Notes: generated from the letters alone by a model not told the origin. A stretch of 64,000 nt of DNA from Fidelibacterota bacterium (GCA_021734045.1 JAIPJR010000001.1:5901-69900); one strand, 5' to 3'. Counted from the first letter of the stretch, positions 20,827-64,000 are shown. Program-made: numbers and translations.

Positions 20827-23800
20827 TTAGGTGACCAGCTCCTGTGAGGACACATACTCACTCATCTTCGCCTGTTTTTTCGCGAAGCGTTTTCGTGTCA
20901 TGAGCAGATAGAGTGTGGGAATGAAAATCAGGGTCAGAAAGGTGGATACGGTCATACCGCCAATTACTGAGCGTGCCATGGGTGCCCAGATTTCTGCACC
21001 CGAACCGAACCCCAATGATAACGGCAACAGTGATAGAATTGTGGTTAAGGCGGTCATAAGAATCGGCCGTAACCGCAAACGCCCGCCTTTCACAATCGCT
21101 TCCTGCAGTGAAAGGTCATCCTCCCGGCCGACGATTTGATTGATAAAGTCAATGAGTACGATGGCATTATTCACCACCACACCGACCAGCAGCATCGCGC
21201 CAATCATCACCGTGATTCCCATGTTGGTACCGGTGAGCAGGAGTGCCCAAACCACACCGATAAATGCCAGGGGAACGGTGAAGAGAATGATGAAAGGATC
21301 CAGAAAGGATTCAAACTGGGCTGCCATCACCATGTAAACCAAGATTATGGCGGCTAAAATTGCCAAACCCAGATACATGAACGATTCCTGTAAATCCTTG
21401 GCCGTGCCGCCAATTTCAATACGGAAATCCGGTGGTAATGGCAAAGTCTCCAGCTTGGCATTCAGGTCATTGGTGATGGATTGGAGATCGCGTCCCGAAT
21501 TGTTGGCATTTACCGTCACCAGACGACTTTGGTCTTCCCGGTCAATTTTAACCGGTGCGTCACCAGCCACGATTGAAGCCACATTATTCAGCGGAATCTG
21601 CTCTCCGGTGGGTGTTGAAATATAAATTCTGCTCAAGTCCACTTCACTGGAACGAAAAGCCCGGTCATACCGCACCACCACATTGTACTCATCGCCGCCC
21701 TCACGATAACGGGTGGCAATACTACCTTTGATGGCGGTGGAAACGGTTCGGGCAATGGCTGACACATTCAGACCCAGCGCTGCCGCCCGATCCCGGTCAA
21801 TGTGCACCTGATACTCGGGTTGGGGGAGGGTGAATGACAGATTGATATCCACCAATCCCTCAATGTCCTCCATTATGTTCTCAACCTCATAAGCCAGCTC
21901 TTTCGCGGCTTCCAGGTCGTGACCAAAAATTTTCACCTGAACCGCACCGCCACCACCCATGGCCGGCCCACCCTGCTGAAAATTCATCTTCACACCCGGT
22001 AATTCAGCGAAGCGCTCCCTGAGAACATCCTGAATTTCAAACTGGCTCCGTTCGCGCTCATCTTTATCCGATAGCCGAATCATCATGGAGCCTTTATTGG
22101 AAGCATTACTGCCAAAGATGACCCCAAATCCGGTAGCTGTTCCGAAACTGATATAGACATTTTCAGCTTCCGGAACCTCATCGTGAACGATTTGTTCAGC
22201 CCGGGCAAAAATATCATTCGTCTGGGGTAATGATGTGCCGACTTCCGTGGAAATGTCCATGCTTATCATGCCCTGGTCCGCTTCGGGAATGAATTCACCG
22301 CCCAGACGGGAACCCAGTGCCATGGTGAAGATGAAAATTCCTACGATACTGAAAATAATCGTCTTCGGACGCTTTAATGCAAAACGCAAGGAGCGTTCAT
22401 ACACATCAATTAAGCCGACGAGCAAATGACCGATACGATTATCGAGCCAGACAGCCATACCCCATTTGTGGGTTTGTTGCTTGCGCGACAGGAGCCGGCT
22501 GGCCATGAGCGGGATCAGGGTTAACGCCACCAACAGCGATGTAATGAGCGATACCACAATGGTGAGCGCCATATCCTTGAAAAGCTGCCCGGCAATCCCT
22601 GGTACAAACAGAATGGGAACGAATACGGCTAAAGTTGTCAGCGTGGAAGCGGTGATTGCCATTCCCACTTCGCTGGCGCCATTCTCTGAGGCCACCCGAA
22701 TACGTTCACCACTCTGCTGGCGTCGGAAAATATTTTCCAGCACCACGATGGAATTATCCACCAGCAATCCAATGGATAATGCCAGACCGGCCATTGAAAT
22801 GATATTCAGTGTAATACCCAGGCGGGCCATGATGAAAAAGGTGACCACAATGGAAATGGGAATTGAAATGGAGACAATAACCGCGCTGCGAATGTGGCGC
22901 AGGAAGAAAAATAAGACCAGTCCCGAAAGCAAAAAGGCTTGAATAACGGTGCTGGATAAATTGGAAATGGATTGGTTGATGAATTTTGCCTGGTCAAACA
23001 AGACATTGAATTTAAGTCCGTTCCCCAGCCGTTTTTCCAGGTCGGGTAATGCCTCTAACACCGCTTCTGTCGCCTGGACTGTATTGGCATCCGTCTGTTT
23101 ATAGGCCATCATCATCAGCGCGTTCTGCTGATTGGTGCGAATGACCTGAGAAATTTCCTTAAAGCCATCGGTCACGGTGGCCACATTCTTCAGGTAGATG
23201 GGTGTTCCGGAATTGGAATATCCCACCACTGTATTCCCAATCTGATCCACACTGCTGAAAGTAGCATCTGTTTTCACCGAGAATTCCCGGCTGCCTTCTT
23301 CCAGTGTTCCACCCGGGATTTCCAGATTACTGAAAGTGAGGGCATTTTGAATCTGCTCCACCGTAATCCCGTTTGCGGCTAATTGATAGGGATTCAATGA
23401 AACCTGGATCTCCCGCTCCAATCCACCAACCGTTGTAATTGACGCCACACCGGGCAGCCGCTCCAGCCGCGGCTCCGCCTGTTCCAGGAGGAGTTTCCGC
23501 AACTCGGCCTCACCCAATTGATCCGCGGTGGCCGACATAAAGACAATTGGTTGCATGGAGGGGTTGAATGCGAAGGTCAGGGGCTGACTCACCTCATCCG
23601 GGAAGTAATCACGGATCAAATCAATCTGCTTCCGGACATTCTGCTCCGCCACATCCATGTCGGTACCCCAGTCGAATTCGATGAAAATGATGGAGGAGCC
23701 GCTCAGGGATTGGGAAGTGACCCGTTTCACACCTTCCACGGAAACCACCGTTTCCTCAATGGGACGGGTTACCAGCGTTTCAATATCTTCCGGTCCCACA

Positions 23801-23958
23801 CCTTCGTACTGGGTGATTGCGCCGATGAGGGGAAACTGGATATCGGGATACAAGTCCAGCCGCAACTGGAGTAATCCGAAAACACCAAATCCCACGGCGA
23901 TGAGATAAATCATGGCGAAGGTGACGCCACGCTGGATACTGACTTTTGATAATTTCAT
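20827..23958 (-). CDS. RND-family multidrug efflux transporter (AcrB/HAE1-like)
   Basis: 1043-aa, 12-TM protein with two large periplasmic loops and characteristic AcrB family sequence throughout. Confidence 0.9.
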   Translation of the reverse strand: MKLSKVSIQRGVTFAMIYLIAVGFGVFGLLQLRLDLYPDIQFPLIGAITQYEGVGPEDIETLVTRPIEETVVSVEGVKRVTSQSLSGSSIIFIEFDWGTDMDVAEQNVRKQIDLIRDYFPDEVSQPLTFAFNPSMQPIVFMSATADQLGEAELRKLLLEQAEPRLERLPGVASITTVGGLEREIQVSLNPYQLAANGITVEQIQNALTFSNLEIPGGTLEEGSREFSVKTDATFSSVDQIGNTVVGYSNSGTPIYLKNVATVTDGFKEISQVIRTNQQNALMMMAYKQTDANTVQATEAVLEALPDLEKRLGNGLKFNVLFDQAKFINQSISNLSSTVIQAFLLSGLVLFFFLRHIRSAVIVSISIPISIVVTFFIMARLGITLNIISMAGLALSIGLLVDNSIVVLENIFRRQQSGERIRVASENGASEVGMAITASTLTTLAVFVPILFVPGIAGQLFKDMALTIVVSLITSLLVALTLIPLMASRLLSRKQQTHKWGMAVWLDNRIGHLLVGLIDVYERSLRFALKRPKTIIFSIVGIFIFTMALGSRLGGEFIPEADQGMISMDISTEVGTSLPQTNDIFARAEQIVHDEVPEAENVYISFGTATGFGVIFGSNASNKGSMMIRLSDKDERERSQFEIQDVLRERFAELPGVKMNFQQGGPAMGGGGAVQVKIFGHDLEAAKELAYEVENIMEDIEGLVDINLSFTLPQPEYQVHIDRDRAAALGLNVSAIARTVSTAIKGSIATRYREGGDEYNVVVRYDRAFRSSEVDLSRIYISTPTGEQIPLNNVASIVAGDAPVKIDREDQSRLVTVNANNSGRDLQSITNDLNAKLETLPLPPDFRIEIGGTAKDLQESFMYLGLAILAAIILVYMVMAAQFESFLDPFIILFTVPLAFIGVVWALLLTGTNMGITVMIGAMLLVGVVVNNAIVLIDFINQIVGREDDLSLQEAIVKGGRLRLRPILMTALTTILSLLPLSLGFGSGAEIWAPMARSVIGGMTVSTFLTLIFIPTLYLLMTRKRFAKKQAKMSEYVSSQELVT

Positions 23959-23970
23959 ACCGAATTGTCC

Positions 23971-25257
23971 TTAATTCTTCACACTCACCAGGGTGGAATC
24001 GTTGAGGATGGTGCGACCAATTGAAACAACTTCATCACCCTCCTGTAGCCCGGATAATACTTCGTAGAAGGCATCCGATTCGATGCCAATCTGAATGGTA
24101 CGGTATAATGCCAGACTGTCATCCACCACGAATACTGAATAAGTCGTGATCACCTTACTGTCCCGCAAATCGGTTCCGGTCTGAATTTGATTGGTCTTGG
24201 TATCCACATCATTTTTGGAAACCAGCAGGACATCATTCTTTTCCTCGATGAGAATTTTCACCGTTCCAAACATCCCGGGTTTCAGCAGACTCTCCGGGTT
24301 GGGTACGCTGATTTCGGCTTCGGTTGTCCGGGTCGCTGGATTGAGAACGGGTGAAACTTTCGACACGACACCTTCGAAATTGTGGTTTGGATGCGCGGTG
24401 GTCGTGATAATCGAGCGCATACCCCGGCGCACTTTACTCACATCAGCTTCAGATAATTGAACCACCACTTTCACGGTGTCCATCTGGTAGATATTGATCA
24501 GCGGGATTTGACCGGCGACCATATCACCCTCCTCCAGCGTCCGGCCGGCGACAACACCGGAGATGGGCGCTTGAATCAGCGCATCACCCAATTGGGATTT
24601 CATGCTGGTAAGGGCAGCGCGTGCCTGGTTTACGGCCTCTTCGGTCACCTCTTTTTGGGTTTTTATCTGGTCAAACTGACTTTTCGACATGGCATTGGCT
24701 TCATACAGTGAAGCGGCACGGTTGAACTCCTCCTGGACATTCATCAGTTGAGCCAGGGCGGTATTCAACCCTGCGTTGGCCTGATTCACCGCTTCCATTA
24801 ATTTGGTATCTTCAATCTGGGCAATGGGATCGCCTGCGTTTACAAAATCACCATTATCCACATAAAATTTGTTGATGCGATCGGGGACTTTACTGAAAAC
24901 CCGAACCATGGTTTTCCCGCGCACATCACCCACATAGGTGAGGGATTTAGCGATATAGCCCCGCTTAATGGGATCCGTGTAAACCGGAACGACGACATTT
25001 TCTGATTCAGAAAGGTTCGCTTTCTTCAACTGCGCCACCAGTTTCTCGACATTTTCCACAAATGCCCGGCTCTCATCTGTCGTGGGATTGGGATTTTTTG
25101 TGTAATCCGTAACCAGTGCCACAATTTTATTTGCCGTCCGGTCATAGGTGAGCCCGGCGTTTTTCTTGCCACCACCCATTACCATCGCGCCGATGATGAT
25201 TAAAACCACGACGACGATTGCTGCTATGATTATTTTCTTTTTCATACGTATCCTCAC
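23971..25257 (-). CDS. RND efflux membrane fusion protein (HlyD/AcrA family periplasmic adaptor)
   Basis: N-terminal TM anchor, coiled-coil hairpin, and lipoyl and beta-barrel domains, lying between the TolC-like and RND genes. Confidence 0.85.
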   Translation of the reverse strand: MRIRMKKKIIIAAIVVVVLIIIGAMVMGGGKKNAGLTYDRTANKIVALVTDYTKNPNPTTDESRAFVENVEKLVAQLKKANLSESENVVVPVYTDPIKRGYIAKSLTYVGDVRGKTMVRVFSKVPDRINKFYVDNGDFVNAGDPIAQIEDTKLMEAVNQANAGLNTALAQLMNVQEEFNRAASLYEANAMSKSQFDQIKTQKEVTEEAVNQARAALTSMKSQLGDALIQAPISGVVAGRTLEEGDMVAGQIPLINIYQMDTVKVVVQLSEADVSKVRRGMRSIITTTAHPNHNFEGVVSKVSPVLNPATRTTEAEISVPNPESLLKPGMFGTVKILIEEKNDVLLVSKNDVDTKTNQIQTGTDLRDSKVITTYSVFVVDDSLALYRTIQIGIESDAFYEVLSGLQEGDEVVSIGRTILNDSTLVSVKN

Positions 25258-25288
25258 GTTGACTCAATTCTATTGTTTAGTGCACCTT

Positions 25289-26608
25289 TTACAGGGCATT
25301 CACCGCTTTTTTCAACTGATCCACGGCCACATTGTATTGAAAAATGGACTGGTAATAACTGGACTGAGCCTGGAGGTAGTTCCCCTCCGCCGTTAAAACT
25401 TCCAGTTGCGTCGTGCTGCCGTTTTCGTACATGATGCGCGCCAAACGCAGGGCTTCGGCGGCATGTTCCATCATGGTGGCGTTTGCACCGATATTCATTT
25501 CGGTTTCGTTTACTTTCAGCCAGGCTGATTCGATTTCAGATTTGATGGATAATGCCGTCTGCTGTAGCCGAATGTCTGCTTCCTTTTTAGAAATCAACGC
25601 CTTCTGAATGCCCAGGGTTTTACGCCCGCCCGAAAAAAGCGGCCAGGACAGATTCAGCGCGGTAGTCGTGCTCCGCATGTACAAGTCCCGGTCAATGTCG
25701 CGGGAGTGTTCGGCTTGGGCCTGATGGCGCACATCCGCACTCAGTGAGAGGGACGGTAAGAGCTGGCCCATGGCAATATTGCGTTGGTATTTCGCAATAT
25801 CCTGCTGACTCTCGGTGATTCGCATCTCCGGACGATTCACCAGACCAATAGCTTTGAGAGAATCCAGAGAGGTACCAGCAAAGGGATTGGCGATTTTCCG
25901 GAGGGAGTCGGCAATGTTCAGATGAACCACTTCTTCAATCCCCATTACCATTCGCAGATGGGTTAGCACCGTCTCGTGTTGATTTTTCAGCGACTGTAAT
26001 TGGGGTTGCAGGCTTTGGAGCTTCACCTGGGCCTGAAGAACATCAAAGCGACTGGCCCGGCCCACGGCTTCACGCTTTTGGACCTGTTCCAGATTGGTTT
26101 TTGCGGAAAGACTAGAGCGTTCCGTGGCTTTAATGAGTGATTCTAAAAACTCGGTTTGGAAGTAAAGACTCCGCACCGTGTTGAGCACCTGTTGCCGGGT
26201 GAGTTCCCGTGACCAGGAACTGATATTTTTTGATTCCAGAGCGATGAGCAAACCATTCCCCGCTGCGCCACCATTGAATAAGGGCTGATTCAGAGACAGT
26301 CCCGCAGTGGCATTATAGGGAACACCCATGGTAATGGGGATGTTGGGTCCGGCGGGATTGGTAAAATTGGGGATGTAAATAACCGGTAGCTCGTGGTTTT
26401 TTGTATATGAGCCGTAAGCGGTAATGCTGGGTAGCACTGTTCCTACTGCTTCGGCTACACTCACTTTTGCCTTGGTTTCACCTTTTCGGGCGATGGTCAG
26501 GTCAAAATTCTGCTCCAGAGCCAATTGTTCCGCTCGCTCCAGGGTTAAATCGATTGTCTGGGCAAACCCCAAACTAACCAACAGGAGGAATAGAGTCATG
26601 CGCTTCAT
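25289..26608 (-). CDS. TolC-family outer membrane efflux protein
   Basis: Signal peptide (MKRMTLFLLLVSLGFAQ) and two repeated alpha-helical/beta-barrel halves typical of outer-membrane factor proteins. First gene of the efflux operon after tetR. Confidence 0.85.
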   Translation of the reverse strand: MKRMTLFLLLVSLGFAQTIDLTLERAEQLALEQNFDLTIARKGETKAKVSVAEAVGTVLPSITAYGSYTKNHELPVIYIPNFTNPAGPNIPITMGVPYNATAGLSLNQPLFNGGAAGNGLLIALESKNISSWSRELTRQQVLNTVRSLYFQTEFLESLIKATERSSLSAKTNLEQVQKREAVGRASRFDVLQAQVKLQSLQPQLQSLKNQHETVLTHLRMVMGIEEVVHLNIADSLRKIANPFAGTSLDSLKAIGLVNRPEMRITESQQDIAKYQRNIAMGQLLPSLSLSADVRHQAQAEHSRDIDRDLYMRSTTTALNLSWPLFSGGRKTLGIQKALISKKEADIRLQQTALSIKSEIESAWLKVNETEMNIGANATMMEHAAEALRLARIMYENGSTTQLEVLTAEGNYLQAQSSYYQSIFQYNVAVDQLKKAVNAL

Positions 26609-27177
26609 TGGATTGACGATCCTTCTTTAATAAACATGATGATCTGTTTTGTCAGATTTTCCGGGTCGAATTCGCCATTTACCCGAAACTGCCGCCCCAT
26701 GATGGCACCATTCACTGCGGGAATAATCATGGATGCCAGTAATTCCGGTTCCATATCATTGCGAACTTCGCGCGCTGCGATGCCCCGTTTAATGATATTG
26801 ACCAGGGATTGAAAACTCTGCTCAATAAGGGGCTCGAAATCTATCTGAATCTGGTTCCGGAAACGCCCTTGCAGCGTGAAAAAAATCAGCCGGCGGGTAT
26901 TGGGGAAATCAATGGCATTTCGCACATTGCACAGTGCCCAGTTATGCAGAGCAGACCATACATCCGGTGAATTCTCCGTCACAGTAATCTCCTGTTGGAG
27001 ATGATTCCGGAAATTATCTTCAACAACAGCCCGGAAAATGGCCTCCTTGTTAGGATAGTGATAATACAAGGCTGCTTTGGTAACGCCAACCGCTTCGGCA
27101 ATCTCCCGCAGAGAGGTACTGGTATAGCCTTTGTCGGCGAATAATCTGGCTGCGGTTTCTTTGATTTTATCTTTCAT
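26605..27177 (-). CDS. TetR/AcrR-family transcriptional regulator
   Basis: N-terminal HTH (…TSLREIAEAVGVTKAALYYHY…). The ATG at 27177 is preceded by the RBS GGGGGA. The GTG at 27198 given in the ORF track is less likely. Overlaps the TolC-like gene by 4 nt. Confidence 0.85.
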   Translation of the reverse strand: MKDKIKETAARLFADKGYTSTSLREIAEAVGVTKAALYYHYPNKEAIFRAVVEDNFRNHLQQEITVTENSPDVWSALHNWALCNVRNAIDFPNTRRLIFFTLQGRFRNQIQIDFEPLIEQSFQSLVNIIKRGIAAREVRNDMEPELLASMIIPAVNGAIMGRQFRVNGEFDPENLTKQIIMFIKEGSSIQ

Positions 27178-27200
27178 CGGTACATATCCCCCGGCCACTC

Positions 27201-27370: not shown

Positions 27371-27406
27371 TCCAAAATAGAAGGCGACGATAAAATCGCC
27401 GCCTTC
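27371..27406 (-). terminator. Putative terminator after the ACT-domain gene
   Basis: Hairpin gaaggcgacgat-aaa-atcgccgccttc, with a single mismatch. On the minus strand it is followed by TATTTTGG. Located 64 nt downstream of the ACT-domain gene stop. Confidence 0.45.
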
Positions 27407-27469: not shown

Positions 27470-27946
27470 TCAGGGCACCTCAAATACCGTATCCAGCGCT
27501 TGCCGTGCAATTTCCAGCTGATCCTGCCGGACAACGGAACTAATCGAGCTGATTGAGGTGCTGATTCCTAAGATATTTACACCATTCAAACCCAATGCTC
27601 TGAAAGCCCGTGCCGCCAATCCACAGCGCTCCCTGAAATGCGGTCCGTACACGGTCAAAAGACTGACCGGGTAGGTCTTGGTTACCTTCAAATTCTGATG
27701 CAATTCCTGTACTGCCTGTACAGCCTGGTCCAGATTGTACTCATCATCCGGTTTTACGGTTACCGACATCATCGCCTGGCCTTCATCTCCGATGCTGCTG
27801 GTGGCTGAGATGAATCCGATACAAATATTCCGTGCGGCAAATTTACTCAAAACCGTACCCGCCCAGTCTGGAGAATCTATTCCGGATGAGAGATGAATGA
27901 ACATGAGATTGTTGTCCACCAGAATGCCGCCTACCCGCTCTTTCAT
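27470..27946 (-). CDS. Stand-alone tandem ACT-domain protein (aspartokinase regulatory-domain-like)
   Basis: 158 aa. Its C-terminal half resembles the regulatory ACT pair of aspartate kinases (…LLTVYGPHFRERCGLAARAFRALGLNGVNILGISTSISSISSVV…). The start ATG overlaps the histidine kinase stop (ATGA). Confidence 0.6.
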   Translation of the reverse strand: MKERVGGILVDNNLMFIHLSSGIDSPDWAGTVLSKFAARNICIGFISATSSIGDEGQAMMSVTVKPDDEYNLDQAVQAVQELHQNLKVTKTYPVSLLTVYGPHFRERCGLAARAFRALGLNGVNILGISTSISSISSVVRQDQLEIARQALDTVFEVP

Positions 27947-29286
27947 GGGACAATCTCCTTTGGAAAATGCACCTGAAAGGTGGAGCCCTGGTCCACTATG
28001 CTCTCCACCGTGACATAGCCACCGTGTTCATCTACCAGCCGCTCCACAATTGCTAATCCCAGCCCTGAGCCTGCTGAACTCACCGACTTTGCCTGAGGTG
28101 TACGATAAAATTCGTGAAAAATTTTCTTCAAATCCGAGGCTGCAATGCCAATACCGGTATCACGTACCTCCAGCAGGATTTCATCACTGGCGTCCATCAG
28201 GCGAATCAGGACGGAACCACTCTCCGGGGTATAGCGCACCCCGTTGGTTACCAGATTCCGCAGCACCTTCCGGATAGCATCCGGATCACAGACCAGTTTC
28301 ACCGGAGATTTCGGCATTTCCGCATCCAGCGTAATATGATGTGCGCTGGCGGTGATTTTTTCGTCCTGTAGAACTTCCTGCACCAACTCCCGCAGATCTG
28401 TTTCTACAAATTCCCCGGCACGCCGTAAATCACCGTAAGTGAGGTCCGAAAGGTCATTGAGCAATGCGATCATTTCTTCAGTTTTTTTCATGGATCGGGC
28501 TGCCATGTCCAGCACCCGGTCATCCACCTGATCGTGGAGAATGTCGTGAATGACTGCCAGGGTGGATTGGATGGTGCTGATGGGGGCTTTCAATTCGTGA
28601 CTGCTGACGCGAAGAAAGTTGGTTTTAGCCCGGTTCAATTCCTGGAGACGCCGGTTAGTGAATTCCAGACGTGTCCGCACCCGACGATACCGGTCGGTGA
28701 CATTTTTCGCCAGATAGGTGGAGAGGAAAATAGTCATGAGAAAAATGAGCCAGGTGAAAACCACAATTTCGGTGTACCGGGTGATATCTACACCTTCGTA
28801 AAAATTGAAATGGGGGAGAACACCAAGCCATTCGGTGCCCAGTAATGTGGTGTACAGAATTACTGCCAAGCCTGCAAATCCATAAGGCCGGGTCCCTGGA
28901 AAGATGACTGCGGCAGTAATAATGTGGAACAGATAGAAAAAGTAGAGCGGACTTTCGATTCCACCGGTAAAATGTATCAGAACGGTGAGGATGAGTAGGT
29001 CTCCCACCATCTGGATGACGATCAAATTTATCAGGTAGTCTTTGTGTTGACGAATAACATAATCGCGCAACAGAATGTAGATGGCATTGACAAGGACCAG
29101 GCCAATGAGAATCAGCACCAGGGCTTTGCATTGGACATGAATAGCCGGGAAATAGCATCCCAGCGCGATGCCAATGCCGAACACAACGATTGCCAGCCAG
29201 CGAATTCTGATTAGCCACGTGACCCGCCGCCGCAACGCAGCTGCAGTGAAAAAGGGTAGTGTGAATGGTGTCCGGCTCTGACTCAC
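27943..29286 (-). CDS. Sensor histidine kinase (membrane-embedded six-TM sensor, HisKA + HATPase_c)
   Basis: Six N-terminal TM helices without a sizeable periplasmic loop, then an H-box (RVSSHELKAPISTI) and N/G1/G2 boxes (…LVTNGVRYT…DTGIGI…GSGLGLAIV…). 447 aa. Confidence 0.85.
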   Translation of the reverse strand: MSQSRTPFTLPFFTAAALRRRVTWLIRIRWLAIVVFGIGIALGCYFPAIHVQCKALVLILIGLVLVNAIYILLRDYVIRQHKDYLINLIVIQMVGDLLILTVLIHFTGGIESPLYFFYLFHIITAAVIFPGTRPYGFAGLAVILYTTLLGTEWLGVLPHFNFYEGVDITRYTEIVVFTWLIFLMTIFLSTYLAKNVTDRYRRVRTRLEFTNRRLQELNRAKTNFLRVSSHELKAPISTIQSTLAVIHDILHDQVDDRVLDMAARSMKKTEEMIALLNDLSDLTYGDLRRAGEFVETDLRELVQEVLQDEKITASAHHITLDAEMPKSPVKLVCDPDAIRKVLRNLVTNGVRYTPESGSVLIRLMDASDEILLEVRDTGIGIAASDLKKIFHEFYRTPQAKSVSSAGSGLGLAIVERLVDEHGGYVTVESIVDQGSTFQVHFPKEIVP

Positions 29287-29307
29287 TGGGTTCCCACCTT
29301 CATGTAA

Positions 29308-29703
29308 TTATGCACGAACGTATTCACGTACTGTGTCAATCAAATCCCGGGGACTCACCGGTTTTTCCAGGAAAGCCTGGACCGGCAGGAAATCCTCATC
29401 TTTATGGGGATCGAATGTGAATCCGGTTTGATTGCCTACTGCCGTGAGAATCACCACCGGTGTATCTTTGATTGCCTCTTCGGACCGGATTTGGTAGGCA
29501 AGCTGGAAGCCCTCATCCAGATGTGCCATCATCACATCCAGCAGAACCAAATCGGGTTTTTCCTGACGCAATTTCTCCATTCCCCGGGTACCTTCCTGGG
29601 CGTCAATGACTATATATCCCACGGATTCCAGCGTTACCCGCATGGCTTCCACCAAATCAATATCGTCATCGATGATGAGAATTTTCTTTTTATTATCAGC
29701 CAT
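29308..29703 (-). CDS. Single-domain response regulator (CheY-like receiver only)
   Basis: Receiver motifs (KKKILIIDDD…, DLVLLDVMM, the conserved T, and K at …LEKP). No output domain. Start chosen as ATG 29703 (MADNKKKIL). It overlaps the upstream hydrogenase maturation protease gene by 8 nt. Confidence 0.8.
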   Translation of the reverse strand: MADNKKKILIIDDDIDLVEAMRVTLESVGYIVIDAQEGTRGMEKLRQEKPDLVLLDVMMAHLDEGFQLAYQIRSEEAIKDTPVVILTAVGNQTGFTFDPHKDEDFLPVQAFLEKPVSPRDLIDTVREYVRA

Positions 29704-30229
29704 GAACTCTGACCTCCTTTGAAAATCGTGGTGAAGGATGATTTCGTTTGATTGTGTTACCGGGAAGCGTTTTCCCGTGGTGATAAATATTCTCAATCAA
29801 TGTGATCACCTGAGGCAGGGCATTTCTGACAGCAGGGGATAGCCGGTGACTCACTGCTACAATTCCCGGCTGAACACCGATGACCCACATTCGCTCCGGC
29901 AGCATGTCCAGCTTTGTCGCCAGATGATACGCTTCGGCCAGTCCCATGCCGTGCAGGGACAGATGGTCCCAGTGCAGGACCAAATCTGCTTCCGAGGGAT
30001 CAAAACAACGCACTGCCCCCGGTTCTGCTCCCATTCGGGCGGCATCCACAATCACCAGATGCTTCCGGTTGGGAAAATATTCCAACAAGCCCAAAGTATC
30101 AGTACCGCCATCTATAAGTTCAATATCCCATTCTGCCTGCGTCTTGCGCAATGCCTGAATAACTGCAATTCCCACACCATCGTCTCCGAATTGGGGATTG
30201 CCTACGCCGATGACGGTTAACCGGGACAT
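29696..30229 (-). CDS. Hydrogenase maturation endopeptidase (HycI/HoxW/HybD family)
   Basis: MSRLTVIGVGNPQFGDDGVGIAV… matches the GxGNxxxxDDGxG signature. It sits directly 3' of the [NiFe] large subunit gene. Confidence 0.8.
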   Translation of the reverse strand: MSRLTVIGVGNPQFGDDGVGIAVIQALRKTQAEWDIELIDGGTDTLGLLEYFPNRKHLVIVDAARMGAEPGAVRCFDPSEADLVLHWDHLSLHGMGLAEAYHLATKLDMLPERMWVIGVQPGIVAVSHRLSPAVRNALPQVITLIENIYHHGKTLPGNTIKRNHPSPRFSKEVRVHG

Positions 30230-30232
30230 GTT

Positions 30233-31540
30233 TCACGCATCCTTAAAATCCACATCCAGAATATGCACGCTGCAGGAGATACAAGGATCGTACGCCCGCA
30301 CCAGCATTTCCAAATGTTGGGTGATTTCCGGCTTGGTTTTGTCCACGATTTCAGGCACCAACTTTTGCATGTCTGCATCCACATTGGCCAGGTTTTGACC
30401 CGTGGGAATCACGCAGTTTGCCGCCACGATGCGCCCGTGATTGTCGTAAGTATAATCGTGAAACAGAATACCCCGAGGCACCTCCGTGGAGCCGATCCCA
30501 CGACCGTAACGGGTAGGTGTCTGGTTGGGTTTTTCTGCTTTCAGACCGCACCCCAAAAGCTCATCAATAATGCGCACACTATCTTCCATGCAGTGCACCA
30601 CTTCCACCACCTGCGCCACGGTATTCATGTACGGGTTGTAGCATTTGGGTTTTAAGCCCAACGTCTCAGCACCTGCCAGCGCGGATTCATTCAGGTGCTT
30701 GTAGTTATTATTCCACCGCGCCAGAGCACCCACCATATAAGCTTCCCGTTTGTGCCGGGCGTGTTTGGATGTGCTGTGTGCCACCACGAATTCATTGGTG
30801 ACACTGAGATAATCCTCCACCGGAAAAGTCCCACCATCGGAGGAGCATGCCGCCCCTCCATACAGCGCATATTCTTCAGGGTGAGTGAGTGAAATATACT
30901 CGGTTTCTCGCTCGAACTGAGGAATAGCACCGGCCAATGCTTTCATCGTCTCAACAGTAGCCGCGCAATCCGGTAGCCCTTCGTTGAGTAATTTATCCTT
31001 TAAGAGCAGCAGCTCGTCCCGGGTAGGAATGCGTGTAAAACCACCAGGTACCGGTGTAATGGGATGTACTGCCCGTCCGGAAACAATATCACCAATATCA
31101 TTTGCCAGACGCTTCATGCGTAATGCCCGCAGAACGACATCCTTGTGGGTGGCAATGAGGGGGAAAACGCTGGGGGCATCCAAAAAATCGGGAACTGCCA
31201 GAAAATAGGCATGGAGAATATTGGATTGTATGGTAGCGCCGTTCACCAGCAATTTGCGCAACAGAACGGTCTGTTCCGAAACCTCTAAACCAAGTGCTGC
31301 TTCAGTGGTTTTCAGCGAGGTGATTTGATGACCAAGGCTACAAATTCCACAAATCCGGCTGGTGATGATGGCTGCTTCGGTAAAACTGCGTCCCTTCAGC
31401 ATGGCTTCGAAGAATCGCGGTGGTTCAACAATATTCAGATGAGCTTTTTCCAGGACACCATCCCGCATATTCACGACAATGTTTCCATGCCCCTCCACCC
31501 GGGTGATGTGATGAACATTGATATCCAAATTCTTCTTCAT
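30233..31540 (-). CDS. [NiFe] hydrogenase large (alpha) subunit, group 3b-like
   Basis: N-terminal L1 motif RICGICSLGH (RxCGxC) and C-terminal L2 motif DPCISCSVH (DPCxxCxxH). 435 aa, short like the group 3 enzymes. Confidence 0.9.
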   Translation of the reverse strand: MKKNLDINVHHITRVEGHGNIVVNMRDGVLEKAHLNIVEPPRFFEAMLKGRSFTEAAIITSRICGICSLGHQITSLKTTEAALGLEVSEQTVLLRKLLVNGATIQSNILHAYFLAVPDFLDAPSVFPLIATHKDVVLRALRMKRLANDIGDIVSGRAVHPITPVPGGFTRIPTRDELLLLKDKLLNEGLPDCAATVETMKALAGAIPQFERETEYISLTHPEEYALYGGAACSSDGGTFPVEDYLSVTNEFVVAHSTSKHARHKREAYMVGALARWNNNYKHLNESALAGAETLGLKPKCYNPYMNTVAQVVEVVHCMEDSVRIIDELLGCGLKAEKPNQTPTRYGRGIGSTEVPRGILFHDYTYDNHGRIVAANCVIPTGQNLANVDADMQKLVPEIVDKTKPEITQHLEMLVRAYDPCISCSVHILDVDFKDA

Positions 31541-32271
31541 ACGGCCACCTCATAAGCATTGAACAACTGTAATCGTTTCACCGCTTCATCCACTGACAGA
31601 CCTTTTTCCGTCAAAATTTCCACCATCGCTTCCCGATTCATCCCTTCCACAAACCCCCGGCAGCCGATACACGCCTGACCAACACCAGGGCAAATCGCCT
31701 GGCAGCCCGCCCGTGTTACAGGTCCCAGGCATATCTGTCCTTTGGTAAGGAGACATTCATTCTCTTCCAATTTGCATTCCACACAGACTGCATAGTTGTA
31801 TGTGGGCGGTGTTTTGCCCATGACCAGTGCTTTGAATAGTTGGAGAAAATCAGGCTGACTCATGGGACAGCCCCGCACCTCGTAATCCACAGCCACAATA
31901 GCTGAAATCGGCATAGCCGGGAGGGTGGCAAACCGGTATTTGTCTTGACCGTAAACCGTCTCCCTCACTTGTTCAATAGGCTGAATATTCTTCATGGCAT
32001 TAATGCCACCGTTCACCGCGCACGCGCCAAGTGCTACCAATATTTTGCTCCGGCGACGAATATCATGGATGCGCTCAACACATGAAGGAGAGGAAATGGA
32101 GCCTTCAACGAAAGTAATGTCATACTCATCACTGGTTTCATCCATGGCTTCCCGGAATTCCACCAAATCAACATGGGCCAGCAAATCCAGCAGTTCATTC
32201 TCAAAATTGAGTTTATTCAACTGACAACCTTCACAACCGGTAAAATCAAAAAAAGCAACTTTAGGTTTCAT
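31537..32271 (-). CDS. [NiFe] hydrogenase small (delta) subunit
   Basis: 244 aa with the proximal-cluster Cys pattern (…DFTGCEGCQ…, GACAVNGG, …CPGVGQACIGCRG…). Overlaps the alpha subunit gene. Confidence 0.85.
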   Translation of the reverse strand: MKPKVAFFDFTGCEGCQLNKLNFENELLDLLAHVDLVEFREAMDETSDEYDITFVEGSISSPSCVERIHDIRRRSKILVALGACAVNGGINAMKNIQPIEQVRETVYGQDKYRFATLPAMPISAIVAVDYEVRGCPMSQPDFLQLFKALVMGKTPPTYNYAVCVECKLEENECLLTKGQICLGPVTRAGCQAICPGVGQACIGCRGFVEGMNREAMVEILTEKGLSVDEAVKRLQLFNAYEVAV

Positions 32272-33123
32272 CTACAGCGCCTCCTCCAGCGGTTTGATAT
32301 CCGTGTACCGGAAGACCGGGCCATCCTGGCAGCAGTATTTCCCATTGATCTGACAATGTCCGCACTTACCCACACCACATTTCATCCTGCGTTCCAGCGA
32401 TACGAAAACCTGCTCATCAGGCAGGCGTTTTGACTTTAACGCCATGAGGACGAATTTGTACATCACCGGTGGACCTGTGACAGCTGCGATAGTATTTGGC
32501 AGATCCAATTGCAGTGCCGGAATCAGGGTTGTAATCACACCCACATTTCCAGTCCAGTCCGCGTTACCATGATCCACAGTCACATGAAATTCCACATCAT
32601 CACGCGCCGTCCATTCTGCCAGTTCTTCCCGGTAGAGCAATTCAGCTGGCGATTTTGTCCCATAGAGTATAATGAGCCGCCCAAATTCGGCTCTCCGGTC
32701 CAGGATGTAATGAATAAGCGATCGTAACGGGACGATACCAATACCACCACCGACTATCAGCACATCCTTCCCTCTGAACTCATTCACATTAAAACCATGA
32801 CCGAAGGGGCCCCGAATACCAATCGTGTCACCGGTATCCAGTGTTCGCAAGACCGATGTCAGCATACCCACTTTGCGGATACACAACTCAAAGCTGCCTT
32901 GCCTGGTGGGTGATGATGAGACGGAAATGGGCGCTTCACCAACCCCCAGAACGGATACCTCTACAAATTGTCCCGGTGTATGTCCCAGATCCTGACCACC
33001 GGGCAGCTCCACACGATACCATTTTTCCAGTTTCGTCAGTTCTTTTGCTTCCACGATTTTACACATGGTAGGCAGGTAGAGGCCCCGCTCTGCCGGGAGC
33101 GTTATATCATGCAAATGTTTCAT
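32272..33123 (-). CDS. Hydrogenase gamma subunit (FAD/NAD(P)-binding, [2Fe-2S]; sulfhydrogenase HydG / anaerobic sulfite reductase AsrB-like)
   Basis: Ferredoxin-NADP reductase-like fold with GGGIGIVP nucleotide-binding motif and C-terminal CGVGKCGHCQ cluster motif. 283 aa. Confidence 0.8.
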   Translation of the reverse strand: MKHLHDITLPAERGLYLPTMCKIVEAKELTKLEKWYRVELPGGQDLGHTPGQFVEVSVLGVGEAPISVSSSPTRQGSFELCIRKVGMLTSVLRTLDTGDTIGIRGPFGHGFNVNEFRGKDVLIVGGGIGIVPLRSLIHYILDRRAEFGRLIILYGTKSPAELLYREELAEWTARDDVEFHVTVDHGNADWTGNVGVITTLIPALQLDLPNTIAAVTGPPVMYKFVLMALKSKRLPDEQVFVSLERRMKCGVGKCGHCQINGKYCCQDGPVFRYTDIKPLEEAL

Positions 33124-34160
33124 GCCACCACCCCCGTTTTCGCATATTGTTGGTTTTCATAATCCTGGATCAAATTATTCACAATATCCGTGAGTGAGAT
33201 GCCCGCGGGGCAGAAGGCCGTACAGCGTCCACACCCCACACACCAGGGAACGCCCTCTTGGTCAGTGATATACTTGAACTTGCGGTAAACGCGGTGACGG
33301 GTTCGCTGCTCGTATTTGTCACGAAAATTTTCACCACCCGCCACCTCCGCGAAGGGCGTGAGCATGCAGCCGTCCCATTGGCGCCGCCGCTCGCCGGACT
33401 TCACATCCAGCGCCACATCATCCATCACATCGAAACAGTAACACGTGGGGCACATGAGATTACAGGTTCCGCAACCCACACAGCGCTCGGCAACCTTTTG
33501 CCAGACTTCCGAGTGGTACACGTGCTGGAATACTTCCGGAATACGGTTGTAATGGTATTTCAGCTTGTTTTTGAAATTCCGCTCAAAACGGACAATATCT
33601 TTCACAGCCTTGAGTTTCTGAAACCCCTTCAGCAAATCAGAACCCTCTTTATTCAGGATGAACAGGTAGTAATTGGTATCTACTTTATTCAGGAAAAGAT
33701 CGAATCCTTCCATCTCTTCCACCCGGATTCCAACACTGCGGGAGAAGTGATAGTCGTCGGGCTCAAAAGAAATTCCGATGAAAATGGCGTCCTGCCGGCG
33801 CAGGATATAATTAGGCTCGGGATGCCCCTCAATCATATTGTGATCCAGGCGCAGAACCGCCTGCATGTCGTAACTGTGGACCCCGAAAAATATCCGCTTT
33901 TCCGGCTTAATCTCTTCCTCCACAACATTTTGTTTCTGAATCGAGTACTGCAGGAGCCGTTCAGTTGGCGGCAGGAAAAATTTCTTAAGGGACAACATTG
34001 TCCGGTTGTAATCAAGGACCACTTCAGATGCATGCGTTACCCGTTCAAAGCTGTACGACTTTTCACCCTTCTGGTGTGGTGCGTACACCGGGGCGATTTT
34101 TTTTAAATGCTCAAGCAGGTCAGGTACTGCTTTTTGAGCCAGATGATAGCACTCCATCAA
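33120..34160 (-). CDS. Hydrogenase beta subunit (4Fe-4S; HydB/AsrA-like)
   Basis: Two ferredoxin-type motifs, CVGCGTCNLMCPTCYC and CVGCGRCTAFCP. 346 aa. First gene of the beta-gamma-delta-alpha operon, an order typical of group 3b bidirectional hydrogenases. Confidence 0.8.
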   Translation of the reverse strand: MMECYHLAQKAVPDLLEHLKKIAPVYAPHQKGEKSYSFERVTHASEVVLDYNRTMLSLKKFFLPPTERLLQYSIQKQNVVEEEIKPEKRIFFGVHSYDMQAVLRLDHNMIEGHPEPNYILRRQDAIFIGISFEPDDYHFSRSVGIRVEEMEGFDLFLNKVDTNYYLFILNKEGSDLLKGFQKLKAVKDIVRFERNFKNKLKYHYNRIPEVFQHVYHSEVWQKVAERCVGCGTCNLMCPTCYCFDVMDDVALDVKSGERRRQWDGCMLTPFAEVAGGENFRDKYEQRTRHRVYRKFKYITDQEGVPWCVGCGRCTAFCPAGISLTDIVNNLIQDYENQQYAKTGVVA

Positions 34161-34385
34161 TTTGCCTCTTTATCAATAGATGTTAAAAAAAATGCGTGTA
34201 TGTGCGGCATTTTGCCTCCCTTGAGCAAGGGAAGTTGCAAAGCAAGTGCCACATATGTTCTTGTTTTTACTGTTATTAATTGCGCATGTGAACTAACTGG
34301 ATGCCCGTGTTTCTTCTGCCAGACAGCACCAGTCAATAGCGCTAACTTCAGGGTATTTTAAGGGTTGGGAGGCGAGTAATTGTCC

Positions 34386-44740: not shown

Positions 44741-47700
44741 ATGATTATCGCCATTGATGGTCCGGCGGCATCCGGAAAATCCAGTACTGCAGCGCGTGTT
44801 GCGGCGAAATTGGGGTTCCGGCATATTGATACCGGTGCCATGTACCGGGCTGTGACCTTGTACATGTTGGATCATGGTGTAGATATTTCGGACACAGAAT
44901 CCGTTCTGAACGTACTGCCGGATGTGGATGTGTCGCTTGAATTTAAAGGTGATAATCAACATGTGATTCTAGCGGGTGTGGATGTGAGTGATCGCATCCG
45001 AACGCCGGCTGTGAATGAGCATGTGAGCCAGGTTAGCGCAATACCGGCCGTACGCCAGCGTCTCGTAGAACTCCAGCGCCAAGCTGCCAATGACTACGAT
45101 GTGGTATTGGAAGGACGCGACATCGGAACAGTCGTATTTCCCAATGCCGAATTGAAAATTTTTATGATTGCCGATGTCCATGTCCGGGCACAACGGCGCC
45201 AGCAGGAGTTGGCGAGCCTGGGCATTCAGCAAGACCTGGCTGAATTGGAAAAAGATCTGATAGCGCGTGACAAAATCGATTCATCGCGAGAATTGTCACC
45301 ATTGAAACCCGCTACTGATGCAGTCGAGCTGGATACATCCAAGCTTACCATCGACCAGCAGGTAGCATTCATCGTTAACCAAGCCAAGCAACTGATTGCA
45401 GAGGAGGAAAGACCCTTCATGGCAGAAGAAGAAAAAAAGGATGCACCGCAGACTGAAGACCAGTCCCAGGAGACATCCGAAACCACCTCAGACGCCGTCG
45501 AGATGACGCCCGCCGAGGAAACCCAGGACAAAAAAGAAGAGACCATCGCGTCTGAACCTGAACCCGAAACCAAAACCGAGACCGAAGCTGAATCCAAAAC
45601 TGAAGCCGAAGCCGAAGCCGAAGCCGAAGCCGAAGCCGCAGAAACTGACGCTAACACCGCATCTGCTAAAGATGAGGGTGACGAAGTCAGTTCTGAGGTA
45701 GCACAAAAAACTGATGCTGAAATGACGCCTGAACAAGCCCCGGATACAGAAGCACCGGTCGAGGAAAGTGCGGAATCATCTGACAAAGATGAACCGGCCA
45801 AAAGCACTCGGAAAACCGTCAAGGTGAAAGCCAAAACTTCTGGTGAGCCACCGGTTCAACCGGTTGTTGATGCGGAAGAAGCTGAAAAAGCTTCGAAAAA
45901 GATTGCCGGACTGGATAAACGGTCCGCCATGAATGACATCTTCAACCAGATCAAGACAGTGAAGCCGGATCAGCTTGCTGAAACCATTGCTGAAGAATCC
46001 GAGGAAGTGAAAGACCTTTCCTTCCTGCTGGATCGTACTATCGCAGACATTACGCCGCGTACCCTGGTGGAAGGGCGTGTCATTTCTGTGGGCGATCGTG
46101 AAGTACTGGTGGACATCGGTTTCAAATCCGAAGGGCTGGTTTCCCGGGATGAATTCAAGGATGACGAATTGCCCAAGGTGGGTGATAAAATCGAATTATT
46201 CCTGGATACACTGGAAGATGATCAGGGTCAGACAATTCTGTCCAAACGCAAAGCAGATTTCATGCGTGTCTGGACCGCGATAAAAGATGTTTCCGACAAT
46301 GACGACCTCATCAATGGCACCATTACTCGCCGGATTAAAGGTGGTATGGTGGTGAATGTGATGGGTATTGATGCCTTCCTGCCCGGATCGCAACTGGATG
46401 TGCGCCCCATCCATGATTTTGACGCATATATCGGAAAGTCCTACGACTTCAAGATCGTCAAACTCAATGAAACCCGGAAGAATATCGTACTCTCACGGAA
46501 AGACCTGCTGGAGGAAAAACTCCAGAAACAGCGGGCTGAACTGTTGAAGAATATCGAGATTGGCCAGGTACTGGAAGGCCGGGTAAAAAATATCACCGAT
46601 TTTGGCGTATTCGTCGACTTGGGTGGTGTTGATGGTCTGTTGCATATCACCGATTTGTCCTGGGGACGGGTTAACCATCCCTCTGAAGTTGTGGATATGG
46701 ACGATGAAATTACCGTAAAGGTGATTGATTACGATGAAGAAAAACAGCGTGTCTCGCTGGGATTCAAACAGTTACAGCCACACCCGTGGGAACATGTGGA
46801 ACAGAAATATCCTGTGGGTTCTGCTGTTAAAGGCAAAGTGGTCAGCATCACCAATTACGGTATTTTTGTGGAATTGGAAGAGGGTGTTGAAGGTCTGGTA
46901 CATATCTCAGAAATTTCCTGGACCCAACACATCAAGCATCCATCGGAAATTTATTCGGTTGGTGACGAAATTGAGACCGTCGTGCTTTCAATCGCACCGG
47001 ATGATCGTAAAATCAGCCTGGGCGTGAAGCAACTGAAACCGGATCCCTGGACCCTGATTGAGGATACCTACATCGTGGGTACACTCCACACAGGTACGGT
47101 TAAGAACCTGACCCAGTTCGGCGCATTTGTTGAATTGGAAGAGGGTATCGAAGGCCTGATCCACATCTCAGATCTCTCATGGACGCGCAAAGTCCGTCAT
47201 CCGAAAGAGGTACTGAAACGCGGAGACGAAGTGGAAGTCCGCATTCTCGACATTGCTCAGGACCAGCGGAAAATCTCGCTTGGGCTCAAGCAGGCCGAGG
47301 AGGATCCATGGCCGCAGATTGAACAGGAATTTGCCGTGAACAGCACCCGTAAGGGTAAAGTCATCAAATTGCTGGACAAAGGCATCATCCTGGAGCTGGA
47401 AGGGACCGATGTTGAAGGTCTGATTCCCCTGGCTGCGTTCAACAAGAAAGACCGGAAGACGATTCTGGATAAGTTCGAGGTAGATCAGGAAGTAGAAGTC
47501 AAGGTGATCGAGATTGATCCCAATGACAAGAAAATCCTGGTCAGCCATGAAGCCGCCATCAAAGATAAAGAACGGGCGGTTGTGGACGAATATCTGCGCG
47601 GTCAGAAGCAGGACGGCAATAAGCTTGACATTCCCGATGAAATCGTGGCCAAAATCAAGGAAGCTGCCGAGGAAGAAACCGAGAAAAAGGTTGCTGCTGC

Positions 47701-56184: not shown

Positions 56185-56190
56185 TTTAGT

Positions 56191-58619: not shown

Positions 58620-58633
58620 TACGAAACGGTATT

Positions 58634-59806: not shown

Positions 59807-59813
59807 TTGACTG

Positions 59814-63638: not shown

Positions 63639-63657
63639 GTTGTTTACTTTTCATAAC

Positions 63658-64000
63658 ATGCGCATCCTCATCATCTCCCAATATCATCCCCCTGAAATGG
63701 GCGCCGCAGCAACCCGTTGGTCAGATTATGCAAGATTGCTGGCCTCCCGGGGATATCAGATTCAGGTCATTTCGGAAGTCCCCAATTATCCCAGTGGTGT
63801 CATCTCTCATGAATATGCACCAGGGAACCGGTTTAATCTGGTAAGGGCGGGCGGTCAAGTACCTTATAATTTATTGAGGGTTCCGGTTTGGGCCAATCCG
63901 CGCCAAAACACTTTCCAGCGCATGGGCTTCTTTTTCTCCTTCATGTGTTCGGCCATTTACGCGGCACTTAAGCTACCCCGATTTGACTTAGTTATCACTA
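63658..64000 (+). CDS. Glycosyltransferase (WcaI/WbuB-like GT4), N-terminal part; continues beyond the window
   Basis: MRILIISQYHPPEMGAAATRWSDYARLLASRGYQIQVISEVPNYPSG… is a typical GT4 N-terminal domain. Confidence 0.7.
   Translation, partial: MRILIISQYHPPEMGAAATRWSDYARLLASRGYQIQVISEVPNYPSGVISHEYAPGNRFNLVRAGGQVPYNLLRVPVWANPRQNTFQRMGFFFSFMCSAIYAALKLPRFDLVIT

Follow-up and report, generated by a model that had tools for sequence, protein, structure and literature searches.

The window analyzed in this study, a stretch of 64,000 nucleotides (nt) from a Fidelibacterota bacterium (GCA_021734045.1, JAIPJR010000001.1:5901-69900), belongs to a metagenome-assembled genome (MAG) of the Marinimicrobia (Neomarinimicrobiota/Fidelibacterota), a marine sediment-type bacterium. 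On its minus strand, from position 34160 to 27470, gene calling placed eight tightly packed open reading frames (ORFs), in which the beta, gamma, delta, and alpha subunits of a group 3b-like [NiFe]-hydrogenase and a maturation protease are followed by a receiver-only response regulator (RR), a histidine kinase (HK) with six transmembrane (TM) helices, and a stand-alone protein with ACT domains in tandem (hereafter ACT). As read from the sequence, these eight genes are a single operon that extends from a sigma-54-type promoter to an intrinsic terminator, and their joint recurrence in at least 49 loci of other species is far beyond chance. We propose that the last three genes encode a redox- and metabolite-responsive signaling module that is attached to the enzyme and has its output at the protein level; the probability of this overall picture falls, in our judgment, slightly short of even.

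A group 3b-like hydrogenase operon that ends in three signaling genes

The first gene of the operon, beta (33120..34157, minus strand like all features of the operon), lies in an ORF extending to 34160 and starts with ATGGAGTG at a conserved ATG at 34157; it encodes a HydB/ShyB-like Fe-S protein. It is followed by the genes for the FAD/NAD(P)-binding, 2Fe-2S gamma subunit (32272..33123; FAD_binding_6, NAD_binding_1, and DHODB_Fe-S_bind domains), the delta or small subunit (31537..32271; Oxidored_q6), the alpha or large [NiFe] subunit (30233..31540; NiFeSe_Hases), and the hydrogenase maturation endopeptidase (29696..30229; HycI). The signaling genes then encode the RR (29308..29703 from its ATG start; 131 amino acids, with Response_reg as sole domain), the HK with its RegB/PrrB-like membrane sensor (27943..29286; 6TM_PilS, HisKA, and HATPase_c), and ACT (27470..27946; 158 amino acids, ACT_9/ACT_7/ACT). 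Neighboring genes overlap by 4 nt (beta/gamma, delta/alpha, and HK/ACT) or 8 nt (protease/RR), or are separated by 0 nt (gamma/delta), 3 nt (alpha/protease), and 21 nt (RR/HK). A first-pass annotation of this stretch had counted nine genes joined by overlaps or single-digit gaps. We count eight ORFs on this strand, and every overlap that it listed is present, but the RR/HK gap is wider than it allowed; the domain content that it had assigned to the hydrogenase, protease, RR, HK, and ACT genes was recovered in our domain searches.

To the 5' side, the 293-nt region preceding beta holds the sequence TGGCAC-N5-TTGCA at 34251-34236 (TGGCACttgctTTGCA, 34236..34251, minus strand), which presents the -24 GG and -12 GC of a sigma-54-type promoter at the exact spacing and is located 79 nt before the beta ATG. 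This is the sole exact match in the 64-kb window, where 0.10 would be expected, and in the window's clade 16 other species have TGGCA[CT]-N5-TTGCA at the corresponding place, approximately 78 nt 5' of the conserved ATGGAGTG start. At the operon end, an intrinsic terminator hairpin with a 12-bp G+C-rich stem and a U-rich tail (27380..27406, minus strand) is located 64 nt past the ACT stop codon, and the search for internal terminators yielded none that was convincing, only weak 6-bp hairpins being detected within genes. The sigma-54 promoter, the strong terminator after ACT, and the lack of a convincing terminator between them agree with the one transcription unit that had been proposed earlier. 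The promoter differs between lineages: in Calditrichota, including Caldithrix abyssi, TGGCAC-N5-TTGT is present at approximately 55 nt, Krumholzibacteria have a TTGACA-type (sigma-70-like) element in place of the sigma-54 motif, and this motif was searched for and found absent both in Krumholzibacteria and in the other Marinimicrobia (type A) clades with the operon. The promoter type therefore lies outside the conserved core. A six-frame search for GAFTGA, the motif of sigma-54 activators, was negative for the 64-kb window and for all 78 loci of the survey described below (up to 10 kb of flank), and an Rfam scan of the 26.5-35 kb region gave one sub-threshold chance match only.

Further elements were observed around this promoter. 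A short palindrome, TCCCTTGCTCAAGGGA, is located at 34216-34231 (minus strand), past the sigma-54 element and ahead of the beta start codon, where a 5' leader is predicted, and is not conserved among the aligned relatives. In the group of loci L004-L065, conserved A+T-rich blocks with TGAT...ATCA-like repeats lie approximately 60-150 nt 5' of the sigma-54 element (alignment columns ~150-260). These blocks could be binding sites for an activator; they are not recognizable in the window itself.

The best NCBIfam matches of all four hydrogenase subunits are the models of Pyrococcus furiosus sulfhydrogenases I and II. Beta matches sulfhyd_ShyB (236 bits) and HydB (219 bits), contains Fer4_22 (112 bits), and is AsrA-like too; gamma matches PRK08345 (269 bits) and HydG/ShyC (213 bits); delta matches sulfhyd_HydD (207 bits); and alpha matches sulfhyd_HydA (275 bits) and ShyA (253 bits). 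The alpha subunit also contains the nickel-binding motifs RICGICSLGH and DPCISCSVH, the latter followed by a 9-residue tail, and the protease matches HycI (82 bits) and TIGR00072 (129 bits, cut-off 47). Because the sulfhydrogenase models are the best matches, yet subunit scores of 207-275 bits stay far below the equivalog cut-offs of 460-880, which makes this a match at the level of the family and not of the orthologue, the label "group 3b-like" fits. With the beta-gamma-delta-alpha order, the sulfhydrogenase-best subunits, and the metal motifs of the large subunit, the group 3b type suggested by the first-pass annotation holds; these features predict a cytoplasmic, NAD(P)-linked [NiFe] enzyme of this group, whose large subunit the protease would mature. 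The gene order, the subunit models, the metal motifs, and the dedicated endopeptidase are common to P. furiosus sulfhydrogenases I and II and the bacterial Hyh-type 3b enzymes, but the operons described for 3b enzymes lack the three signaling genes that the window operon adds.

Conservation of the eight-gene unit

To delimit the distribution of this arrangement, one genome per GTDB species was scanned with a profile of the ACT protein, which resulted in 78 loci onto which the eight window proteins were mapped and in which all neighbors were clustered. The full eight-gene order was found in 41 further GTDB species representatives, and 5 additional loci that are cut by contig ends are consistent with it. 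Record titles among the profile-scan loci comprise Marinimicrobia, "FCB group", Calditrichota, and Melioribacteraceae, and across those with the unit the identity drops to 30% for ACT and 31% for the HK. Searches with the RR and with an ACT protein of Calditrichota as starting points reached further lineages, and the same eight genes were detected in Krumholzibacteria, in Calditrichota metagenomes, on a 415-kb contig of one further organism, and on the 4.9-Mb chromosome of the cultured C. abyssi, the ACT protein of which is identical to H1XQX5_CALAY / Calab_0424 of strain DSM 13497. In total, the order is present in at least 49 loci of four phyla, namely Marinimicrobia, Calditrichota, Krumholzibacteria, and one Melioribacteraceae MAG. 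The published genome analysis of C. abyssi lists the 3b enzyme (Cabys_3226-3229) and the protease and leaves the three signaling genes unmentioned.

The junctions between the genes are conserved as well. An HK/ACT overlap was found in 45 of 48 loci and measures exactly 4 nt in 32 of them, the RR/HK overlap is 8 nt in 17 loci, and the distance between the protease and RR genes is at most 46 nt in all but one of 41 loci. Distance matrices of all eight proteins correlate pairwise at 0.90-0.98, which indicates that the unit has been inherited whole. Mean pairwise identity in 22 complete loci is highest for alpha (0.79) and delta (0.77), followed by the RR (0.73), gamma (0.70), and beta (0.62), and is lower for ACT (0.50), the HK (0.47), and the protease (0.46). 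In our reading, the signaling module has accompanied the enzyme from a time before the divergence of the FCB-group phyla.

Several lineages have additional genes next to the operon. In two Krumholzibacteria loci (L080 and L081), NikR, a CbiM-type Ni/Co energy-coupling factor (ECF) transporter, a radical-S-adenosylmethionine (SAM) protein, and HydF are encoded directly 5' of the operon, so that nickel supply and hydrogenase maturation are clustered with it there. In the Calditrichota loci L082, L083, and L085, which include that of C. abyssi, a conserved 926-amino acid hybrid kinase (PAS-PAS-HisKA-HATPase-REC) is encoded directly after ACT on the opposite strand, in convergent orientation, and may belong to the same signaling network. 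Directly after ACT, several Marinimicrobia carry hyp genes and the genes of a quinone-linked Hyb-type (group 1) hydrogenase; such hydrogenases were noted earlier in Marinimicrobia, with no regulators mentioned (PMC5688066). The window itself contains no hyp genes, NarL regulator, PAS kinase, or second hydrogenase.

Variant loci and the strength of the hydrogenase link

One branch of the ACT tree lacks the six-TM kinase, and ACT is encoded there 0-9 nt before a PAS/HisKA_3 kinase. In eleven loci, the hypFCDEAB maturation genes are followed by the RR, by ACT, by a PAS/HisKA_3 kinase, which is cytoplasmic, and by a regulator of the NarL type (GerE). After another few kb, these loci encode a receiver-only protein that is NarL-like, beta/gamma subunits resembling AsrAB, and a membrane hydrogenase of group-4-like type (NuoH/NuoB/NuoC/large/NuoL-type). 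In the type C loci, a DNA-binding NarL-type regulator is present and the receiver-only RR and ACT are retained besides. The group-4-like cluster was observed in L036, L061, L072, L073, and L075 (at ~12.5-20 kb), where its NuoH, NuoB, NuoC, large-subunit, and NuoL-like genes are accompanied by AsrA/AsrB-like beta/gamma genes and a HybA-like Fe-S protein and are preceded by a NarL-family receiver-only protein of approximately 122 amino acids.

Other variants differ in the enzyme or in the partners of ACT. The short contig L054 encodes the 3b hydrogenase, the protease, the RR, and ACT, with no six-TM kinase. Seven loci have ACT, a PAS kinase, and a NarL regulator, then LexA and DnaE2; no hydrogen genes were found in the surrounding 10 kb. 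In L045 (8239-10459, a Fidelibacterota MAG), RR-HK-ACT is located beside a gene that elsewhere flanks the operon, the five hydrogenase/protease genes are absent, and the kinase ORF overlaps the ACT ORF by 118 nt; this locus looks like a natural deletion variant. Outside the FCB group, relatives of ACT adjoin receivers or kinases together with NAD(P)H-linked redox enzymes (NuoE/NuoF, AsrAB-like, and FdhA/NuoG-like). In the Marinimicrobia loci with enough flank, ACT directly adjoins at least one of two partners, a kinase gene and a receiver gene, and in most cases the two of them. A hydrogen-metabolism neighborhood was found in approximately 60 of the approximately 73 informative loci. The first-pass annotation had named the occurrence of the trio away from hydrogenase genes as evidence that would speak against the association. 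Such cases exist, but they are a minority (L045 and the seven ACT loci with another kinase/NarL pair), and at least 49 loci keep the link, which thus appears to be very strong and not absolute.

Predicted properties of the kinase, the regulator, and the ACT protein

The H, N, G1, F, and G2 boxes of the HK (SSHELKAP, NLVTNGVRYT, DTGIGI, FHEFYR, and GSGLGL) are conserved in 46 orthologues. Hydropathy analysis predicted six helices with short loops, which makes the sensor essentially intramembrane, with no soluble sensor domain. Residues 1-200 match only two NCBIfam models, NF033792 (ActS/PrrB/RegB) and NF045988 (RegB), the E-values of the membrane domain being 1e-6 for the window protein, 4e-10 for that of L023, and 5e-13 for that of C. 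abyssi; the Pfam model 6TM_PilS matches with 38-40 bits (cut-off 27). The TM3-TM4 loop has the pattern [TS]G[GS]x[ED][SN]P[LF] (GGIESPL in the window), with Asn in 19 and Phe in 20 of the 46 sequences, and Arg29 in TM1, N67, Q92, D96, H121, and H159 are invariant in the family. In RegB, GGXXNPF and the TM1 residues R31 and Q38 form a ubiquinone site that sets kinase activity (PMC3000548). We read the HK membrane domain as a remote homologue of the quinone-sensing RegB/PrrB/ActS domain, which provides a lead for its signal and not a proof. This homology strengthens the earlier suggestion that the membrane-embedded sensor responds to a membrane or redox signal.

Two known systems resemble the window HK and RR most closely in the sensor. 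RegB/RegA (PrrB/PrrA, ActS/ActR, and RoxS/RoxR) is alike in having a six-TM sensor without a soluble domain and, as judged by motif and position, in the GGxx(N/S)P(F/L) form of the TM3-TM4 loop and the TM1 Arg, and it governs hydrogen utilization too (PMC3000548). However, RegA has a DNA-binding domain, which the window RR lacks, and the RegB systems are Proteobacterial, whereas the window system stands within an enzyme operon of FCB-group phyla and includes the extra ACT protein. PilS, a sensor of pilin within the membrane whose partner is the sigma-54 activator PilR, is alike in the 6TM_PilS domain and in the sigma-54 promoter, as found at pilA (PMC6058289), but a PilR-type activator and pilin genes are absent from the window locus, and the linked regulator is receiver-only. 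The two-component systems dedicated to a hydrogenase locus provide another comparison. In the HoxBC-HoxJ-HoxA and HupUV-HupT-HupR systems, a group 2b regulatory hydrogenase acts as sensor together with a soluble PAS kinase and an NtrC-type DNA-binding regulator; the window operon is alike in its dedication to a hydrogenase, but none of these three components is present in it.

The RR has Response_reg as its only domain, and its AlphaFold2 (AF2) model agrees with the claim of the first-pass annotation that it lacks an output domain. The residues of its phospho-acceptor pocket (D12, D13, D56, T87, and K114) are invariant in 30 regulators. Together with the kinase boxes of the HK, this DD/phospho-Asp/Thr/Lys set makes the two proteins an intact kinase-receiver pair of the classical type. 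Helix alpha4 is replaced by an invariant TGFxF...D..FLPV loop (T93, G94, F95, F97, D102, F105, L106, P107, and V108), and in the AF2 model this stretch is mostly non-helical, with a predicted local distance difference test (pLDDT) score of approximately 52, the rest of the receiver being confidently modeled. The nearest solved relative is the stand-alone RR468 of Thermotoga. The identity of the RR among the complete loci is in the range of gamma and delta and far above that of the HK and ACT, and RR relatives at 60-74% identity span phyla. The RR evolves no faster than the enzyme core, and its invariant surface is not structured by itself. These two traits suggest that a conserved protein besides the kinase and ACT is its partner, and the low model confidence is as expected of a surface that a partner would stabilize. 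The search for fusions of the RR to kinase or output domains was uninformative, none being found among the best 120 relatives, all of 115-131 amino acids.

ACT aligns over its full length with aspartokinase beta subunits (2re1, 5yei_D, 2dtj, 3s1t, and 2dt9; E-values of 1e-15 to 1e-25), and its AF2 model (pLDDT 92) superposes on them with a TM-score of 0.86 (2dt9) at approximately 24% identity. Based on this alignment and on the modeled fold, ACT is a full-length paralogue of the aspartokinase beta subunit, and the description of the protein in the first-pass annotation as aspartokinase-like without a kinase domain is confirmed. The motifs YGPHFRE and NILGISTSISSI are invariant in the family. 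YGPHFRE occupies the loop of the second ACT domain, where aspartokinases have GxGM, and the "PDxPG" loop of the first domain is kept by most family members (DSPDWAG in the window); the family also keeps the "NI..IS.S" segment. In aspartokinases, effectors bind at the interfaces between paired ACT domains (PMC4142519). A library-wide profile search detected many stand-alone relatives with the GPHF signature, and no informative fusion to a kinase, receiver, or output domain was found among the best 150 matches, which are either stand-alone proteins of approximately 155-170 amino acids or true aspartokinases.

ACT also differs from its relatives in context. The beta subunits of alpha2beta2 aspartokinases (Corynebacterium glutamicum LysC-beta and those of Thermus thermophilus and Mycobacterium tuberculosis) share with it the tandem-ACT fold over the whole length and the NI..IS.S segment, and with most members of its family the PDxPG loop, but ACT has no catalytic partner nearby, contains the YGPHFRE loop, and is tied to two-component genes and hydrogenases. 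The PII (GlnB)-NtrB-NtrC system is an example in which a small ligand-binding protein switches a histidine kinase. By analogy, ACT could be a small oligomeric metabolite sensor with a ferredoxin-like fold that is encoded with a kinase and presumably acts on it; in contrast to PII, its fold family is that of the aspartokinase-type tandem ACT, and, unlike NtrC, the window RR is not a transcription factor.

A proposed signaling module and its alternatives

In the mechanism that we propose, the membrane domain of the kinase would read the redox state of the membrane quinone pool, a signal suggested by the lack of a soluble sensor domain and by the remote homology of the six-helix domain to RegB/PrrB/ActS. 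ACT, translationally coupled to the kinase, would bind a small cytoplasmic metabolite and shift the kinase/phosphatase balance, as PII does on NtrB. In favor of a contact between ACT and the kinase are the conserved overlap of their genes, the partial correlation of divergence, which is highest for HK-ACT, and the placement of ACT 0-9 nt before another kinase in the lineages without the six-TM kinase. The kinase would phosphorylate Asp56 of the RR, and the phosphorylated RR would act by protein contact via its unusual invariant alpha4-beta5 face. As its target we favor the hydrogenase as such or the NAD(P)H module formed by beta and gamma, since the latter also adjoins RR-ACT in variant loci, and the outcome would be a post-translational gating of H2 evolution or uptake and not a change in transcription. 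A target at the protein level is favored because the trio is always located downstream of the enzyme and co-made with it, because it is retained under any promoter type, because no activator is ever linked to it, and because lineages that add a NarL-type system keep the RR and ACT; domain searches detected no DNA-binding domain in the RR, HK, or ACT. Physiologically, the module would control a valve between NAD(P)H and H2, with the supply of substrate and the redox state of the respiratory chain deciding whether it is open. That the hydrogenase is the specific target of the regulator is a tentative idea, with the balance of probability tilted against it. The complete chain, in which a RegB-like quinone-pool kinase tuned by an aspartokinase-type ACT sensor controls a CheY-like protein that docks on the 3b hydrogenase or its NAD(P)H module and gates H2 post-translationally, anciently so across the FCB-group phyla, is unlikely to be right in every link.

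Several observations weigh against this mechanism. Regarding the signal, Arg29 and the TM3-TM4 loop of the HK correspond to R31, N110, and F112 of RegB by motif and position only, the HK family has neither a conserved TM1 Gln equivalent to RegB Q38 nor a counterpart of Cys265 approximately 40 residues past the phospho-His, and scores of 28-49 bits with the RegB models, for an equivalog cut-off of at least 350, denote remote homology. Moreover, the Pfam model that matches is named for PilS, the ligand of which is pilin rather than quinone. Regarding the module, ACT lacks an adjacent kinase in L054 and the RR in seven loci, so neither partner is invariant, and the L045 trio has no hydrogenase within 8-10 kb. 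The partial correlations of divergence that remain when the shared phylogenetic signal is removed (0.67 for HK-ACT, the highest, 0.51 for RR-HK, and 0.37 for RR-ACT) carry no significance test and come from non-independent pairs of phylogenetically structured sequences, and the HK-ACT value is no more than suggestive of co-evolution. Finally, the sigma-54 promoter implies an unlinked activator and hence a possible transcriptional route.

Along such a route, the kinase would feed an unlinked NtrC/PilR-type activator of the sigma-54 promoter, the RR would be a phosphate sink or feedback modulator, and ACT would tune the kinase, the whole being a case of transcriptional autoregulation. Two-component genes within the operon that they control are a common autoregulatory design, and the promoter in question is perfect and conserved. 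Both kinase families to which the HK is related point in this direction too, since PilS-type six-TM kinases pair with the sigma-54 activator PilR (PMC6058289) and RegB-type kinases control transcription, including that of hydrogen utilization (PMC3000548). However, no GAFTGA-type activator is encoded within 10 kb in the 78 loci or in the 64-kb window, the adjacent and apparently co-evolving partner is a receiver-only protein, the trio is equally conserved in Krumholzibacteria with their sigma-70-like promoter and in the Marinimicrobia clades without the motif, and type C loci keep the RR and ACT although they add a NarL-type DNA-binding regulator. We consider this autoregulation unlikely. The same relationship to RegB allows a broader role, that of a general redox or energy two-component system that is merely co-transcribed with the hydrogenase and has most of its targets elsewhere, as RegB/PrrB/ActS systems are global regulators (PMC3000548). 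The RR-HK-ACT trio of L045 without hydrogenase, the ACT relatives of other phyla that adjoin NuoEF-, AsrAB-, and formate dehydrogenase-like genes with other kinases, and the very high conservation of the RR, which fits a partner in the core machinery, all agree with this. It is less easily reconciled with the tight linkage of the trio to the 3b genes, kept in at least 49 loci of four phyla with junctions that overlap or are only minimally spaced, with the one evolutionary history common to all eight genes, or with the relocated RR-ACT pair, which is placed between hyp maturation genes and another hydrogenase, and a general system of this kind appears decidedly doubtful to us.

A further possibility concerns the last gene only: ACT might be a separately encoded regulatory (beta) subunit of aspartokinase whose position is incidental. 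The full-length similarity in sequence and fold would fit such a subunit, and the Joint Genome Institute (JGI) and UniProt name relatives "aspartokinase" or "aspartate kinase". Canonical aspartokinase beta subunits, however, start internally within lysC, and ACT is encoded neither within nor next to an aspartokinase catalytic gene. No aspartokinase was noted among its annotated neighbors in the survey, which are instead kinase/receiver, hydrogenase, and hyp genes, and in the Marinimicrobia loci with enough flank it adjoins the kinase and/or the receiver. The replacement of the GxGM loop by the invariant YGPHFRE and the conserved 4-nt overlap with the kinase gene also argue against this role, which is very improbable.

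Other features of the window

Directly downstream of the operon, at 20827-27198 (minus strand), the window encodes a TetR regulator and a resistance-nodulation-division (RND) efflux system (outer-membrane factor, membrane-fusion protein, and AcrB-type pump). These genes carry their own promoter-like site, and the same TetR-RND neighbors follow ACT in the closest relative, L002. Elsewhere, an ORF of 1104 amino acids at 44741-48055 (plus strand) combines cytidylate kinase (Cmk) and a ribosomal protein S1 with multiple S1 domains in one fused protein. At 56000-64000, the G+C content drops from approximately 0.49 to 0.35-0.41; the polysaccharide export, glycosyltransferase, and flippase genes of this region indicate a variable surface-polysaccharide locus, which may have been acquired horizontally.

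Novelty and implications

The components described here all belong to known families, and it is their conserved combination that is new in the literature that we searched. Searches for a hydrogenase combined with ACT and a histidine kinase, and for Marinimicrobia/Fidelibacter, found no description of it, in agreement with the statement of the first-pass annotation that no such arrangement was known, and two-component genes as recurrent partners of this ACT family are likewise undescribed in that literature. There is a real chance that the combination hides a new mode of enzyme control. The hypothesis is directly testable, since C. abyssi DSM 13497, a cultured strain, has this operon. Group 3b hydrogenases are very widespread in environmental bacteria, and their physiological direction and control are poorly understood. 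As its parts suggest, the module would receive one input from the membrane quinones, through their redox state, and a second one from a cytoplasmic metabolite, and its output would not be transcriptional. If this is true, it would explain how peptide-fermenting bacteria of the FCB group, including the abundant marine Marinimicrobia, time the venting of NAD(P)H as H2, and tandem-ACT proteins would constitute a new class of accessory sensor of two-component systems.

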